Part shown: piece by piece, positions 18,996-25,179 of the stretch
Layout: every line of letters begins with the position of its first letter
How positions within the stretch are numbered: position 1 is the first letter of the stretch
Source of the DNA: Candidatus Aceula meridiana
GTDB lineage: Bacteria > Omnitrophota > Gorgyraeia > Zapsychrales > Aceulaceae
Length of the DNA: 64,000 nucleotides
Assembly: GCA_030765185.1 (NCBI GenBank)
Contig: JAVCDE010000024.1
Coordinates: 315,538-379,537 of the forward strand
Direction: 5' to 3'
Program-made: the position numbers and the translations under genes
The notes under the pieces: generated by a model
What the model saw: only the letters and a program-made list of their open reading frames with translations
What the model was told of the DNA's origin: nothing
The model's database searches: none

Positions 18996-19217
18996 ACGCT
19001 AAAATTTTAAATAATCAATGGTTACCAAGCTTGTTTTAAAAACCCATCAAGCATCGTGGCTCGGACGAAAACTCACCAACGCACGATTCTTTTTAAGATA
19101 AATAAAAACCTCTTCCCTCTCGAAAAAGAAGTCTTTTGGTGTTGAAAATAAAAAAATGGTGGCACTGAGATTTTTTAAGGCAATCTCAATATCCACCAAG
19201 ATTTGCGAAAAAATCTT

Positions 19218-19238
19218 GGTGGAGGCGAGGAGAATCAA
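19218..19238. repeat. att direct repeat (left boundary), partial copy of tmRNA 3' end
   Basis: TGGTGGAGGCGaGGAGAATCA vs tmRNA-end TGGTGGAGGCGcGGAGAATCG. Confidence 0.7.
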
Positions 19239-19457
19239 TCAAGCAATTCTTCACAACCCCTTTATTTGCAATGATTTTACTAAATTATCGTCGAGAATGC
19301 AAGAATAATTATTGTGCGAGGAGTTACATTTAGATACGCTCAAGTGCGAGGGTTTTGATGTGGGATGGGCACCATTTGGGCACCATTCTTCTGTGTGCCA
19401 GATTCGTGACAGGTTTTAAAAACATTCAGACTATAAAGAGGATCAGTTTTTTCATTA

Positions 19458-20507
19458 CTATTCGATAGATTTCCCAAAATAGGCATACCACCCATCGGTT
19501 AAATATCCTGTTTTCTTCAACACAATATCACTAATGTAAATCTTCCCATCAAACGCAAAGATAAAATATCGCATATCATCGGACATCCCCCTAGGCCATA
19601 TCATGCTATACCCTGGTGCGTTCGCGCCAAGAAATCGTACTAATAGCTTTTCATTTCCATTCTCCTTCACCATCAAACTGCCAGAATTATTTTTGTATAC
19701 TGTAATCTTTTGATTACCGAACACTCTTCCATGATTAGCAATTCCCCTATTATTTGGCCCCCAGTAAACTTCTCGATCATCAATATAGCCAACCTTCCCA
19801 AATCGAGCTGAATAGGCAGGCGAATTTTCATAAATTTTTATGTTTTTCATTTTAGTAATTTCTTTTGAAATAAGATCGTATTGAAAAAATGCCTTTTCAA
19901 AATTTCCATAATAGTTATTACCTAAGTGAAATCTAAGTTTATTCTCTAAAAAAATCCTCTTTCCATCGTTAGCGACAGACAACTGAGACATCTCTTGAGG
20001 CGTATCAATGACTTCCTTTGTGCCGTCTTTTATGTTAAAAATACAGAGTTTCTTGCCATACATCATTAAATAAGCGAATCTGTTCCCGTCAGGGAACCAC
20101 GCTGGCTCCCAACAATTTTGACCCTTTTCGATAATGTTCATCTTCCCACTGTCTAAATCAATAAGGACTATTCCTACAGCATAAGTTGATGCATTATATG
20201 TCCGAGCCAATATTTTCGTTCTGTCAGGTGATATCTTAGAATCATCCTCATCAAAATCAACATTATCACACACTTTCTTCTCATTCCTACCCTGAAGATT
20301 CATTGAAAAAAGCGAATGCCCTTTTATCACATAAACTTTCTGACTCCCATCAATCCATGAAGTATCTGGCAAAACGCCAAGCATTCTTCCTTCTCGATTA
20401 ACTACAAAAATAAAAAAGAAAAAAATGACTGTTATTGTAATAGCTGCTGCAATGATAGCACCAATAAACAAAAAAACTTTCTTCATCACAATCTCCTTTT
20501 TAAACAT
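19458..20507 (-). CDS. membrane-anchored beta-propeller (TolB/WD40-like) protein, island cargo
   Basis: N-terminal TM helix then repeated ...DG(S/T/N)...(I/V/F) units typical of TolB-like propellers; 349 aa. Confidence 0.4.
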   Translation of the reverse strand: MFKKEIVMKKVFLFIGAIIAAAITITVIFFFFIFVVNREGRMLGVLPDTSWIDGSQKVYVIKGHSLFSMNLQGRNEKKVCDNVDFDEDDSKISPDRTKILARTYNASTYAVGIVLIDLDSGKMNIIEKGQNCWEPAWFPDGNRFAYLMMYGKKLCIFNIKDGTKEVIDTPQEMSQLSVANDGKRIFLENKLRFHLGNNYYGNFEKAFFQYDLISKEITKMKNIKIYENSPAYSARFGKVGYIDDREVYWGPNNRGIANHGRVFGNQKITVYKNNSGSLMVKENGNEKLLVRFLGANAPGYSMIWPRGMSDDMRYFIFAFDGKIYISDIVLKKTGYLTDGWYAYFGKSIE

Positions 20508-20650
20508 TCTAACACGCTGCTCAAAAAAATTCTAAAAGTTATTGGAATTTAGTGTGTGTCTCTATAAATAAAAAAGACCCCGCCAAGGGGGTGTTGCGAC
20601 TTTTCTGGAGATTTTTACCCGACCATCAGGCTACGAACCTGATTCTTTTA

Positions 20651-20722
20651 CTTCCTAACTTATTGATATAAAACAAAAAGGCACATAACCTTGTGAGCTA
20701 TGTGCCAGATTTGTGCCAAAAT
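20651..20722. repeat. ~72-bp repeated intergenic element, copy 1 (hairpin GGCACATAAC..TATGTGCC + T-run on minus strand)
   Basis: ~66/72 identical to 35021-35092; on the minus strand it forms an 8-bp stem followed by TTTTTGTTTTAT, i.e. an intrinsic terminator after the cargo operon. Confidence 0.65.
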
Positions 20723-20780
20723 TAAATATCAAAACGCTTTTTTTATTGCTGACTGAACATTTTCATTCGGCTAGCCGCTT

Positions 20781-21548
20781 TCATCCATGCTTAGCTTTTT
20801 CTTTAAGGCTCTCTTTCCACAAAGTAGGATTAATCTTAACATTAAACTTTTCATGAACTAAACACATAAAATAAGATAATGCTTGAGACACCCTAAAAGA
20901 GTCAAACGTCCATTTGTCGCCGAGAGATGAAACATCTTCATGCACAGCTTGGTTTCTGCAAGCGTCCATCTTTTTAATTTCTTCAATGTCAAAAAGGTAA
21001 TCTCTAATCGGCTGGTAACCCTTGGGAGGTTCGCATAAAGCAAAAAGTATATCAATCTTATCTAAGAGTGATTTTCTTTCCAGCTTCTCTTTTTCGATAA
21101 ACTCACTAATTATTTCTTCTTCCTTTTTTTGTATATCAAGAAATTTAACTTTTTTCTCTCCGTACCTACCCGCAAATGACAATACCGACACCTCCTTAAC
21201 TACTTTAATCATGTCGTAAAGAAAACTATCGATAACTGAATGTGCAAAAATCAACACAGATGCATCAAAGAAATTCTTTGTATTATCAGCATCTAGCTTT
21301 GCCATAGATTTTGCTATCTCTCCGCTTCCCCCTGAACTATCAAAAAACCCCTTCTTATCAATGAAGATGCTATCGTACTGGCTGCCCTTTTCCATTTCAC
21401 TTACAAATCTTTCCGCCTCTTGCTGAAACTTACCATTAATTTCATTTTCTAGTGAGAAATAAGCTCTTCTAAATTGACTAATCTGATGTATTTTTTGAGT
21501 GGCGTTTATCCATGAAGTTGTGAATAACCTCTCCGCATTTTCGTTCAT
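20781..21548 (-). CDS. hypothetical protein, island cargo gene B (HEPN-like Rx4H motif; possible NTase-like GS..DxD motif)
   Basis: 255 aa; C-terminal ACRNQAVHED (R-x4-H); N-terminal half FFDSSGGSGEIAKSMAKLDADN (GS-x11-DxD); 30-nt gap to upstream gene A. Confidence 0.45.
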   Translation of the reverse strand: MNENAERLFTTSWINATQKIHQISQFRRAYFSLENEINGKFQQEAERFVSEMEKGSQYDSIFIDKKGFFDSSGGSGEIAKSMAKLDADNTKNFFDASVLIFAHSVIDSFLYDMIKVVKEVSVLSFAGRYGEKKVKFLDIQKKEEEIISEFIEKEKLERKSLLDKIDILFALCEPPKGYQPIRDYLFDIEEIKKMDACRNQAVHEDVSSLGDKWTFDSFRVSQALSYFMCLVHEKFNVKINPTLWKESLKEKAKHG

Positions 21549-21578
21549 TCTCGTTCTCCTTTGCTGAATTCTTCTCTC

Positions 21579-22217
21579 TTAGCTAGTGACAAACGGAAAG
21601 AACCCGTTCGGCTCTGGCAACAATTTGGCGATCGCATGGCCACTAGTATTTTTGACAAAAGCCGGAGCAAGAAGCCAGACTTCATTAAAAGGTTCAATAG
21701 GCATATCACCACAATGTGCATATAGTTTATCTAGCATTAAATTATTTTTATCAAAATTTAAATATATCAATAAGTTTGTACTCCTAACTACGCTATATTT
21801 CTTGTCGAGCTTCTTCTGAATTGCCTGTCTCGCATACATCAACGCTTCTTCCAAGGCAATAGGTCGGTATTCTTTTGCTTCAGACGGCCTTCCCTTCTTG
21901 ACCCACTCTCTATATTCCTCTGTTCTTTTACGTCCTTCTTTTTGTCTTTCTGTAATTTGATAGTCAACAATTTCATTATCAATCTTAACAATTGCATCAG
22001 CTGGCTCTTCATGGTTCTCGCCCATTTTAACCTGCACGGCACAATGCTTTAACTTCTGGAATCCTATACAAAAGTGAGAAATTATCCAAGCCTCCATTAC
22101 GATGTCATAACCGGTCTCAATAAAAATTCTCTCATCGTTCAAAGGTTTGATCTCAGCCAACAGTTGATCTGGTGACTGAAAAATAAAGAAATTCTTAGAA
22201 ATTTCACTCATGTGCAA
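21579..22217 (-). CDS. hypothetical protein, island cargo gene A
   Basis: 212 aa; charged central segment ERQKEGRKRTEEYREWVKKGRPSEAKEYRP; no family recognised; operonic with gene B. Confidence 0.45.
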   Translation of the reverse strand: MHMSEISKNFFIFQSPDQLLAEIKPLNDERIFIETGYDIVMEAWIISHFCIGFQKLKHCAVQVKMGENHEEPADAIVKIDNEIVDYQITERQKEGRKRTEEYREWVKKGRPSEAKEYRPIALEEALMYARQAIQKKLDKKYSVVRSTNLLIYLNFDKNNLMLDKLYAHCGDMPIEPFNEVWLLAPAFVKNTSGHAIAKLLPEPNGFFPFVTS

Positions 22218-22407
22218 TATTTTAACATAATGGTTAAGGGAATTATAAATAAAAATGCGGATAACACAAGCGGATAATTGTGGCTGCTGAATAAATTATC
22301 TTTTTCACCGACCCTCAGACTGGCAACCTGAAGGTCATGAAAGACAAAGCATTGCAGATACATTAGCTATATTTTTGCTAGTCGGTTAAAAAGCCGACCA
22401 GCTTTTG

Positions 22408-22599
22408 TTATGGAGTTCTTTTATTTTTAAAAAACTCAATAACTACCTGAGGTTCAAACCGCAAATACTTTCCTAATTTCACATGCGGAATAGCCTCCAG
22501 ACCTTGACAGGTCCTTTGATAGATCCAGCTAACGGGAACACTGAGGATTTGCGCCATCTCTTGAACTGATACCAGTCTCATTTGTTCCATAATATTCAT
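22408..22599 (-). CDS. AlpA/excisionase-family HTH DNA-binding protein
   Basis: 63 aa; MAQILSVPVSWIYQRT...LPHVKLGKYLRF motif of excisionase-type HTH_17; overlaps XRE gene by 1 nt. Confidence 0.6.
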   Translation of the reverse strand: MNIMEQMRLVSVQEMAQILSVPVSWIYQRTCQGLEAIPHVKLGKYLRFEPQVVIEFFKNKRTP

Positions 22600-22802
22600 T
22601 ATTCATCCAAGAAATATGATGTAGGTTTCTTGAGAACCTTGGAAACCTTTACTAAAGTCTCCAAGGTAGGCAAAGAAATTCCATTTTCATATCTAGAAAT
22701 ACTTTTTTGTTTAGCTTTTATTTTTTCGGCAAGGTCTGTTTGTGTTAAATCTAATTCTACGCGAGCTATCTTGATTTTCTTTCCTAGTTTTTTCGCATCC
22801 AT
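22599..22802 (-). CDS. XRE-family HTH transcriptional repressor
   Basis: 67 aa; IKIARVELDLTQTDLAEKIKAKQKSISRYENGISLPTLETLVKVSKVL is a canonical HTH_XRE; divergent from a consensus promoter. Confidence 0.8.
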   Translation of the reverse strand: MDAKKLGKKIKIARVELDLTQTDLAEKIKAKQKSISRYENGISLPTLETLVKVSKVLKKPTSYFLDE

Positions 22803-22821
22803 AAAGACTCCTAAATACTAC

Positions 22822-22849
22822 TTGACAAATATACCCTTCAAGGTATAAT
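22822..22849 (+). promoter_or_regulatory. consensus sigma70-type promoter with CCTT-c-AAGG dyad in the spacer
   Basis: TTGACA-16nt-TATAAT; 20 nt from the divergent XRE start; points toward the recombinase gene (phage immunity-region-like layout). Confidence 0.55.
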
Positions 22850-23113
22850 TTAGACATACACGCTAAAATAAAAAATGCACCTAACTGTAATTAATATATA
22901 CCTCTGAATGGATAAAATCAACAATTAAACATTAAAATGCCAGTCTCCGCAATCACCCCAAATATTATTAAGCCCTCATTACAAATTTCTCTGTGCTGGA
23001 AAGATTGCCATTCTGCCCAGAAGGTTCTCGATGTTGTTTGTCAAATTATTGCCTCTGAATACGTTGTGACCGCTAAAGAGCATCCTGAACTTTTTTCGAC
23101 TAAGGAATAATCT

Positions 23114-24829
23114 ATGCGCGCCTCTATTTACGCCAGATACTCTTCTCAAAATCAAAGCGAAAAAAGCATCGAAGACCAGATAAGGGTCTGCAAAAAATAT
23201 TGTACAGAAAACAATATCACGGTTAATGAAAATAGCATCTATATCGATGAAGCTACGTCAGGCTCTCTTGTAAAAAGATTCGGCCTCGGAGCCCTTGAAA
23301 TCGCAGCCGAAAACAAAGAATTCGACGCCATAGTAGTTGACGATCTCTCGCGTCTTTCCAGAAGCAATCACCAGATGCTTACCCTGGTTCTCAAATTTAA
23401 CTACCTTCAAGTCAAGCTCATTTCTGTTTCTGACGGAATCATTACAGATGATGAAAATTCCAAGCTCGGGATTCAGATGCGGGGACTTATTAACGAGCTC
23501 TATCTCGACGACTTAAAGAAAAAAACTATGCGAGGACTTGAAGGACAAAAACTGCGAGGTTTTAGCGCCGGAGAAAGTGTCTACGGCTATCTGACAAATC
23601 CCTTCGGTGATCTAAAAATGAATCGAAAAGGCATAGCGAAATATGAAGGCAAGGTTCACAAGATTAATCCTGATGAAGCCGAGATAGTAAAAAGAATTTA
23701 TTTGGACTTCGTTTCCGGAAAAAGTACTCACAAGATCGTTGAGCAACTCAATATCGATAAAATCCCGACAAAAAAACACCTCAAGGGTGGCTGGAACATA
23801 TCAACGGTCTGCCGAATCCTTAAAAATGAGAAGTACATCGGTATCTGGAAATGGAAGACACATAAAAGCGTTAGAGACCCAATTACGGGGAAGAGAAAAT
23901 CTATCTCTCGCCCAGAAAGCGAACATCTCTCCTTCTCTCGGGAAGATCTTATTATCATTAATAAAGAGCTCTGGAACAAGGCCCAGGAGCACTGGGCCGA
24001 CCTTAAAGGAACCTGGCCAATAAGCAAGAAAAAGAAAACTTACTATCAACAGAAAAGCTATGTTCACACTAGCCCTACTCACCTATTCTCAGGGCTGATG
24101 AAATGCAAAGCCTGCGGAGGTGCTATTTTGCTTGTCAGCGGTAAAGGATTAGGATATTACGGCTGTTACAATGCCCGGCGAAAAACCTGCAACAACACCC
24201 TGCTCGTTCCTCGTAAAAGGCTTGAGCAGATCATCATTGGTAAGCTGCGAGAAAAACTGCTAACCACGAATAACCTAGAATATGTTTATCGGAATATCGA
24301 AAAACTAATTGCCTCAGGACTCAACGAAGTCCCTGAATTGACAAAAAAGAAAAAGGCACAACTTGAAAAAATTAAGACAGAAATGCACAATTATCTAAAT
24401 TTTATTAGGGCTGGAAATTTCTCAAAGACCGTATCTGAGGCCTTGAATGAAGCGGAAAAGAAAAACAGCGAACTGGAGCAAGAAATTACGGCCTTAGAAT
24501 TTCAACAAAATAATAATTTTAAGGCGCCGCCGAAAGAATGGATCAGTCATCGGCTAGAACGACTAACTGAAACGCTAAACAAAGATACCGTCGCCTCTTC
24601 CTCAGCGCTTAAAGAACTATTGTCACCGATAACCCTTGAGCCTATCTTAAATAAAGAAGTCGACTTATATCGCCTTTTTGAAGGCAACGACAAGGAATTC
24701 AAGCCCTATTACGTAGCCCATACAAAAATCAACACCTTGTCCCTATTAGACGAGAAGGGCCAAGGTGCGAATTGGTATCAATGGTGGAGGCGCGGAGAAT
24801 CGAACTCCGGTCCTTGTGTTACCCAATAA
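23114..24829 (+). CDS. large serine recombinase (site-specific integrase)
   Basis: N-terminal resolvase catalytic domain (ASIYARYSSQNQSE...QIRVC, Ser nucleophile), recombinase domain, C-terminal zinc-ribbon Cys pairs and coiled-coil; 571 aa; last 16 codons are encoded by the tmRNA 3' end. Confidence 0.9.
   Translation: MRASIYARYSSQNQSEKSIEDQIRVCKKYCTENNITVNENSIYIDEATSGSLVKRFGLGALEIAAENKEFDAIVVDDLSRLSRSNHQMLTLVLKFNYLQVKLISVSDGIITDDENSKLGIQMRGLINELYLDDLKKKTMRGLEGQKLRGFSAGESVYGYLTNPFGDLKMNRKGIAKYEGKVHKINPDEAEIVKRIYLDFVSGKSTHKIVEQLNIDKIPTKKHLKGGWNISTVCRILKNEKYIGIWKWKTHKSVRDPITGKRKSISRPESEHLSFSREDLIIINKELWNKAQEHWADLKGTWPISKKKKTYYQQKSYVHTSPTHLFSGLMKCKACGGAILLVSGKGLGYYGCYNARRKTCNNTLLVPRKRLEQIIIGKLREKLLTTNNLEYVYRNIEKLIASGLNEVPELTKKKKAQLEKIKTEMHNYLNFIRAGNFSKTVSEALNEAEKKNSELEQEITALEFQQNNNFKAPPKEWISHRLERLTETLNKDTVASSSALKELLSPITLEPILNKEVDLYRLFEGNDKEFKPYYVAHTKINTLSLLDEKGQGANWYQWWRRGESNSGPCVTQ
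24782..24802. repeat. att direct repeat (right boundary) inside tmRNA 3' end
   Basis: see left repeat; lies in T-arm/acceptor/CCA region of tmRNA. Confidence 0.7.
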
Positions 24830-25179
24830 TAGCCTCTACATGCATAGTTTGTTTTTTAGAATCTCATCTCAGTCACTTTAAACAAACAAACATTACTGAA
24901 ACCAGCCTTTTAAATCTCATTTCACTAATAAAGGCAACCAGTGAAACCAGCCTACTAAATGACCTCTCTTAAAACCCGTAGACAAAACTCTAAGAAAGGG
25001 CCTAGTTTGGTTAAACTAGGGCTGGTTCGCCAGCGAAAATCGGTTCAACGATTTCGTTAGCTTGCGCAATTAGTGTATTTGCGTTTAATTTGTGCCAGGA
25101 TGATTAACGAGGCCAACCAGGCGTCCTCGGCATGCCACTACTATCGGAGTCAAACTCAAGTCGAAACCAGGTCGCCCCC
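24782..25179 (-). ncRNA. ssrA: tmRNA (SsrA)
   Basis: minus strand 5' GGGGGCGACCUGGUUUCGAC...GCAUGCCGAGG... and 3' ...CCGGAGUUCGAUUCUCCGCGCCUCCACCA; acceptor stem with G3-U70 wobble; adjacent to smpB. Confidence 0.8.

Follow-up and report, generated by a model that had tools for sequence, protein, structure and literature searches.

Two adjacent minus-strand genes, here called A and B, lie in a 64-kb window (the whole stretch of DNA analyzed) from a metagenome-assembled genome (MAG) of "Candidatus Aceula meridiana" (phylum Omnitrophota). Gene B encodes a full-length member of an unnamed, unmodelled but widespread family of the HEPN superfamily, which lies near the abortive infection (Abi)-like HEPN families RiboL-PSP, Apea, and MAE_28990. 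The reading that we favor, with a probability of roughly 0.6, is that B is a self-contained Abi-like HEPN RNase carried as island cargo, with no nucleotidyltransferase (NTase) part, and that A is either an independent gene of the island or of a defense island or else a regulator of B that was recruited locally. The initial annotation of this DNA had proposed instead a novel two-gene toxin or defense module, in which B would combine an NTase-like N-terminal half with a HEPN-like active site and A would be the cognate antitoxin or regulator.

Several lines of evidence bear on the HEPN assignment of B, whose fold is that of HEPN proteins and whose Rx4H motif is invariant. First, the motif R198-N-Q-A-V-H203, within ACRNQAVHED, is the genuine HEPN signature that the initial annotation took it for: across 65 aligned homologues that are 21 to 36% identical to B, no columns other than R198 and H203 are invariant. 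The family consensus at the motif is LDxxRHxIVHG, and H103, S104, D107, S160, K164, C172, P174, and D195 are near invariant in the same alignment. Second, a Pfam scan of these 65 relatives gave matches to HEPN_RiboL-PSP for 10 and to HEPN_Apea for 4, and LA2681, MAE_28990, and HepT were each matched by one relative. The best HEPN_RiboL-PSP match, that of P0013 (5e-6; 27.0 bits against a cut-off of 28.4), covers residues 129 to 224, including its LRHDIVHG. These matches are independent evidence for the HEPN assignment. Third, an AlphaFold2 model of B built from the 65-homologue alignment (predicted local distance difference test [pLDDT], 96.6; predicted template modeling score [pTM], 0.90) is all helical, with no strand, and the all-alpha four-helix up-down bundle core of the HEPN superfamily is present in the predicted structure.

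Some results count against this assignment: B itself matched no HEPN model at an E value of ≤1 and no model of PADLOC-DB v2. Foldseek found nothing significant for the B model in PDB or BFVD; 1wwp, Csm6 6tug, and 1wol are lower entries in a list of structure matches. A B profile run against the sequences of solved structures also found no match. The initial annotation recognized neither protein as belonging to a known family, and neither A nor B itself is matched by any Pfam, NCBIfam, PADLOC, or PHROG model. It called the module novel, and that word is too strong for B, which represents an unmodelled family of a well-known superfamily rather than a new kind of protein.

The B family is large but has no Pfam, NCBIfam, or PADLOC model. 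A word-indexed protein search recovered only B itself; an exhaustive phmmer search yielded at least 407 representative clusters (50% identity) at E values of ≤1e-3, 172 of them at ≤1e-10. Most members have about 255 residues and align end to end, and the longer homologues (P0029, P0090, P0091, P0104, and P0116) contain no recognizable additional domains. PADLOC-DB v2 gave just four isolated matches among the 65 relatives (E values of 0.003 to 0.009), none of them convincing. The distribution of the family is patchy, covering bacteria and at least one archaeon.

RiboL-PSP-HEPN, Apea, and MAE_28990 have been described as families with a conserved Rx4-6H motif that are distant relatives of AbiD/AbiF (Anantharaman et al. 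2013, PMC3710099). The B family resembles RiboL-PSP-HEPN (PF18735), Apea (PF18739), and MAE_28990/MAE_18760 (PF18737) in its all-helical core and strict R-x4-H motif (R-[NH]-x-x-V-H in the B family), and these families share with it a neighborhood of restriction-modification and conflict genes (PMC3710099). Likeness to PF18735 extends across the Rx4H region, where relatives of B score just under the cut-off and B itself gives no match. Unlike these families, the B family has its own conserved N-terminal helical extension of about 90 residues and further near-invariant residues, namely, AHS..D at 102 to 107, S160/K164, and C172-x-P174. RiboL-PSP-HEPN is named for an L-PSP fusion or ParB operon (PMC3710099), neither of which is found in the window or at the 12 other B loci that were compared.

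The NTase half of B did not survive examination. The pattern cited for it, given as G-S-x11-D-x-D, is present within FFDSSGGSGEIAKSMAKLDAD (residues 68 to 88), but its spacing is x10, i.e., G74-S75-x10-D86-x-D88. Among the 65 homologues, the DxD columns are variable and the GG is only partly conserved, so that the motif hG[GS]-x9-13-Dh[DE]h is not a conserved one. In the B model, G73-G74 lies in a loop and D86/D88 lies inside helix 75-120. A minimal nucleotidyltransferase requires a beta-sheet bearing the acidic residues. The NTase reading is therefore refuted, because the DxD is not conserved and the strand-free model offers no alpha/beta fold and no sheet to carry such residues. NTase models of Pfam likewise matched neither B nor any of the 65 relatives. 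That B is a minimal nucleotidyltransferase fused to a HEPN protein, the unusual one-protein architecture once suggested, thus has in its favor the pattern in a single sequence and has against it the alignment, the model, and the Pfam search; we give it practically no chance.

Genes of the B type stand often, but not always, in mobile, defense, or toxin-antitoxin (TA) neighborhoods, as judged from 12 other distinct loci with B homologues (13 including the window). At L004/5, a type I hsdR gene precedes the homologue by 148 nt, with an IS3-family transposase and HipA_2 nearby; L011/12 has a divergent TIR gene, a tyrosine integrase, and HsdR; L008 has IS110, ArdC, and the type IV secretion system genes VirB3, VirB4, and TrbC; and at L023-25, a HigBA-like Gp49/HTH_3 pair lies upstream. 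L009/10 has two HTH_3 genes, a gene for a 196-residue protein of no known family 51 nt upstream, DUF5131, and HEPN_AbiV. There (L009:3041-5556 and L010:1434-3949), the DUF5131 gene follows the B homologue by 34 nt and is in turn accompanied by a gene for an unfamiliar 393-residue protein and by the convergent HEPN_AbiV gene, so that two different HEPN families occur within 2.5 kb. The closest homologue of B (P0004, 49% identity), at L014, has an NYN_YacP gene 60 nt upstream; this gene, of a PIN-like nuclease fold, holds the position that A has in the window (L014:145-1343), and P0004 itself is split into two open reading frames (ORFs) by a frameshift or a sequencing error. L013 is on an archaeal chromosome and has a gene for a 321-residue protein of no known family 17 nt downstream, plus an HTH_3 gene. 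Neighbors at L001-3, L006/7, L026, L027, and L028 are housekeeping or uninformative genes. In an all-against-all BLAST comparison of ORFs within 2.5 kb, the only recurring type of neighbor was an XRE HTH_3 gene (4 of 13 loci); it was rejected as a conserved partner of B because HTH_3 genes are so widespread that their presence says little. With variable mobile, defense, and TA neighbors and no fixed partner, B-type genes therefore look like stand-alone accessory genes.

Recurrence in such neighborhoods makes it reasonable to regard B as a candidate toxin or defense protein, as initially suggested. Two findings weigh on the other side: neighbors are housekeeping or uninformative at about half of the B loci (L001, L006, L013, and L026-L028), and B was found neither in phage and plasmid collections (tblastn) nor in the viral contigs of IMG/VR (pattern scan). 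B could instead be a nontoxic HEPN-fold protein with an RNA-processing, nucleotide-binding, or regulatory role, and the pair could be incidental island cargo without a conflict function. Some HEPN families are indeed not toxins (PMC3710099), which together with the housekeeping appearance of half of the loci and the lack of a PADLOC match lends this alternative some support. Both catalytic residues are strictly invariant, however, and the family is scattered over bacteria and an archaeon, with restriction-modification, TIR, TA, insertion sequence (IS), integrase, and conjugation genes repeatedly adjacent and with a mobile-island location in the window. We consider a nontoxic B distinctly unlikely.

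The layout of the A-B locus is as first described. The two minus-strand genes are separated by exactly 30 nt and share one reading frame, and coordinates, spacer, and strand were all checked in the sequence. Homologues of each occur elsewhere, so both genes are real; for A, NCBI places the start at the ATG at 22211, giving 210 residues. The hairpin and T-run terminator after B is also real, its stem being followed by UUUUUGUUUU (ΔG, −18.7 kcal/mol; z = −6.2; none of 200 shuffles folds equally well).

Such a layout invites the reading that A and B form a dedicated, lineage-specific two-component TA or defense system in which A, as antitoxin, sensor, or regulator, restrains the HEPN RNase B. The shared strand and frame, the 30-nt spacer with a Shine-Dalgarno site for B, and the single terminator after B are what a true two-gene system would be expected to show and in this respect count against the reading that we favor. 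The order, with the small gene upstream and the toxin downstream, is like that of type II and type VII TA systems, and relatives of A sit in defense-island-like regions. Tight neighbors, not homologous to A, also accompany B homologues at L014 (NYN_YacP), L009 (the 196-residue protein), and L013 (the 321-residue protein) and could mean that partners are interchangeable. Comparison across loci points the other way. Neither tblastn nor an A-family hidden Markov model (HMM) run against all six-frame ORFs found an A homologue at any of the 12 other B loci, and no B homologue was found at the A-family loci, where relatives of A occur without B. At least four B homologues (L001, L006, L008, and L011) have no same-strand neighbor within 300 nt, so the B family evidently can exist alone. 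In addition, A is not a minimal nucleotidyltransferase (MNT) and has no DNA-binding antitoxin domain. We judge a dedicated A-B system to be unlikely.

In the HepT/HEPN-MNT type VII TA systems (PDB 7ae2 and 8xdj), the partner is an MNT, which A is not, and no MNT antitoxin gene adjoins B; HepT is half the size of B; and the A-B pairing, unlike that of HEPN-MNT systems, is not conserved. A type III-like RNA antitoxin was also considered and rejected, as there are no tandem repeats near the operon and Rfam shows only the transfer-messenger RNA (tmRNA) and a tRNA in the 18- to 27-kb region. Among the PADLOC models of known defense systems, none matched A, B, or members of their families convincingly. 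The pairing is unique to the window locus, so A does not serve as cognate antitoxin throughout the B family, and the co-occurrence of the pair that a two-gene module would show is absent from the compared loci. Most likely, A is a rare, unrelated neighbor of B, either locally recruited or independent, and not its conserved partner.

Gene A belongs to a rare family. Alone, it retrieved only itself in the word-indexed protein search and nothing in genome contigs, phages, or viral contigs. Its first relative, found by tblastn, was WP_247477048.1 of plasmid pCW1_1 from Bradyrhizobium sp. CW1 (database E = 1e-3; pairwise E = 4e-11; 25% identity over 155 residues), and a seed of these two sequences led to seven more loci, one in a Bradyrhizobium MAG and six in soil metagenomes. 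Besides A, eight Bradyrhizobium or soil relatives with 24 to 29% identity were thus found. Across the nine aligned sequences, D72, T87, G93, R94, Y100, R116, K134, K137, Y139, and Y150-L151-N152 are invariant, an acidic residue is kept at E40 (Asp in the relatives), and Q85 is replaced by Glu in the relatives. Pfam (NTase models included) and PADLOC matched neither A nor any of the eight relatives.

Long flanks are available for only two of the relatives (L015 and L016). On pCW1_1 (L015:2221-5528), the A-family gene comes directly after a Gabija-like pair, i.e., an OLD-type AAA_15/AAA_21 plus TOPRIM ATPase followed by a UvrD helicase, and a SIR2 gene is found some 5 kb from it; in the other (L016:5977-9234), a SIR2_2 protein gene lies about 1 kb from the A-family gene. 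These contexts suggest that the A family may itself be a defense-island gene family.

In A, the predicted elements run from an acidic helix through a strand, "PD," and a second strand bearing (E/Q)-x-T to a long basic helix and then an hhhYLN strand; this pattern and its residue conservation suggest a restriction-endonuclease-like core. The sequence of A alone gave only noise against the sequences of solved structures; the best nonrepetitive PDB match of the A-family profile was PA4535 (1y0k, DUF1780). In the aligned segment, PD...FEVFFVLDEGRRLNEEWREE of A faces PD...IEITEVLEEGRKRGDEYRE of PA4535, with the common pattern PD...hEh..V.(D/E)EGR+..(D/E)E(Y/W)RE. PA4535 has been described as a divergent PD-(D/E)XK fold with the motif PD-EXX-K, in which the Lys has moved into the second core helix (Steczkiewicz et al., PMC3424549). 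Like PA4535, A would lack the canonical Lys of (D/E)xK and would have a conserved Lys in the next helix (PMC3424549). With the full PA4535 sequence, obtained via the DUF1780 gene of P. veronii, a permissive, low-probability manual alignment is collinear over helix 1, PD, E, EGRR, and the +K..Y helix; in that alignment, D72, Q85-x-T87, and the invariant K134 and K137 of A would fit the PD-EXX-K variant of PA4535. The features that DUF1780/PA4535 and the A family would share, in order, are an acidic helix 1, (Q/x)PD, h-E/Q-h-x-x-V-x-(D/E)-E-G-R-+-x-x-(D/E)-E-(Y/W)-R-E, a +K..(K)xY helix, and an hhh(F/Y)(L/V)N strand.

The numbers argue for caution. The PA4535 match is weak (E = 1.1 PDB-wide; per-sequence P = 6e-6), hhalign of the A family against PA4535/DUF1780 gave a P value of 0.004 and a probability of 9%, and a reciprocal DUF1780 HMM ranked A-family ORFs 1 to 3 of 1,528 at E values of 0.15 to 1 and left the A of the window unranked. 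A single-sequence AlphaFold2 model of A (pLDDT, 35.6) is unusable. A did not match the DUF1780 model PF08682 in Pfam, and there is no significant sequence-profile match between A and DUF1780. The two also differ in distribution and context: DUF1780 is restricted to Pseudomonadales in a conserved, housekeeping-like context, whereas the A family occurs in Omnitrophota and Bradyrhizobium in island and defense contexts. A DUF1780-like degenerate PD-(D/E)xK fold for A is therefore a lead rather than a finding, tentatively put forward at somewhat less than even odds. Were it correct, A and B might together form an undescribed defense or addiction system of two nuclease folds with swappable upstream sensors or antitoxins (A here, NYN_YacP in the closest relative of B, and unfamiliar proteins elsewhere), a proposal that we regard as quite improbable.

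Returning to a self-contained HEPN RNase as the most probable role of B, we propose the following. By analogy with characterized HEPN enzymes, B would dimerize, and R198 and H203 would form a metal-independent endoribonuclease site. B might thus act as a self-contained toxin-like effector in abortive infection, defense, or island stabilization and might be restrained by its own conserved N-terminal helical extension or by A. A would be cotranscribed with B up to the one shared terminator, from a transcript that may start at the XRE promoter. B itself is cargo of the 5.5-kb serine-recombinase island that occupies the 3′ end of ssrA, and A would be either an independent island or conflict-type gene or a regulator that B acquired locally.

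The island to which the initial annotation assigned the genes was located from the tmRNA gene, the overlapping gene for a large serine recombinase, and two copies of a 20-nt sequence from the 3′ end of the tmRNA (Table 1). The 3′ end of the tmRNA gene (GATTCTCCGCGCCTCCACCA) is found again, with one mismatch, at the far boundary, where the displaced copy carries its own hairpin and T-run (the whole at about 19195-19236); these repeats thus delimit an island of 5.5 kb, at about 19237-24801. The 3′ end of the recombinase gene covers the last 48 nt of ssrA in antisense, so that the ssrA 3′ end supplied by the island doubles as coding sequence for the recombinase C terminus. Besides the recombinase, A, and B, the island contains genes for an XRE/HTH_3 protein, an excisionase-like HTH_17 protein, and a 349-residue protein. 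The two helix-turn-helix genes are island regulators and may be cotranscribed with A and B; in the interval 22212-22407, between the HTH_17 gene and A, neither a minus-strand promoter-like site nor a U-run terminator was found. A and B had been called the main cargo; they are major cargo, but the gene for the 349-residue beta-propeller protein is carried as well. The A-B locus is thus plausible but fairly ordinary mobile-island cargo.

Table 1. Features of the ssrA island and of genes A and B (positions are those of the 64-kb window)
Feature	Position	Strand	Description
Attachment (att) repeat, displaced original tmRNA 3′ end	19217-19236	−	19/20 identical; marks far island boundary
Third cargo gene	19458-20507	−	349 aa, membrane anchored; N-terminal hydrophobic/transmembrane segment; weak PD40/TolB/Dpp5-type beta-propeller similarity
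Intrinsic terminator of A-B transcript	20670-20706	−	11-bp stem (20680-20706), then U-run
Gene B	20781-21548	−	255 aa, ATG start; NCBI P9M07_04875; HEPN-superfamily protein with family-specific N-terminal helical extension
Rx4H motif of B	20940-20957	−	Codons R198-N-Q-A-V-H203, read from sequence
Supposed NTase motif of B	21285-21347	−	Residues 68-88; loop and start of helix 75-120; not a real motif
Shine-Dalgarno site of B	21556-21560	−	AGGAG, strong; within 30-nt A-B spacer, 7 nt before ATG of B
Gene A	21579-22217	−	212 aa from TTG at 22217; NCBI P9M07_04880
HTH_17 excisionase-like gene	22408-22599	−	Pfam HTH_17, 1.5e-6
XRE/HTH_3 gene	22599-22802	−	Pfam HTH_3, 5e-16
Large serine recombinase gene	23114-24829	+	Pfam Resolvase, Recombinase, Zn_ribbon_recom
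att repeat, island-borne 3′ end of functional tmRNA gene	24782-24801	−	20-nt repeat
tmRNA gene (ssrA)	24782-25179	−	ARAGORN and Rfam

Further features were observed around these genes. An imperfect 34-nt direct repeat (74% identical) is present at 19391-19424 and 20698-20731, just 3′ of the gene for the 349-residue protein and of B; its second copy overlaps the hairpin of the B terminator, and the pair could serve both genes as a terminator or in regulation, or could be left over from the acquisition of cargo in modules. Another hairpin and T-run lies at 20577-20592, between the B terminator and the gene for the 349-residue protein. The intergenic region between the divergent XRE and recombinase genes (22803-23113) contains a perfect sigma-70 consensus, TTGACA-16-TATAAT, at 22822-22849 on the plus strand; overlapping inverted repeats centered on GGTATA, which are likely operators for the XRE repressor; and an ORF of 57 codons at 22937-23110 that stops 3 nt short of the recombinase start.

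The more unusual claims made for this locus, an NTase-HEPN fusion and a dedicated two-gene module, fail on testing. What remains is a new unmodelled family of a very well-known superfamily, so its interest is modest, and the finding leaves the current view of how HEPN systems function unchanged. If B is an active RNase toxin or defense effector, this would assign a function to a considerable number of hypothetical proteins, which fall into at least 407 clusters at 50% identity, and catalogues of defense systems would gain a further stand-alone HEPN family. The locus would, moreover, be one of the few examples of cargo on a mobile island in Omnitrophota, a little-studied phylum.

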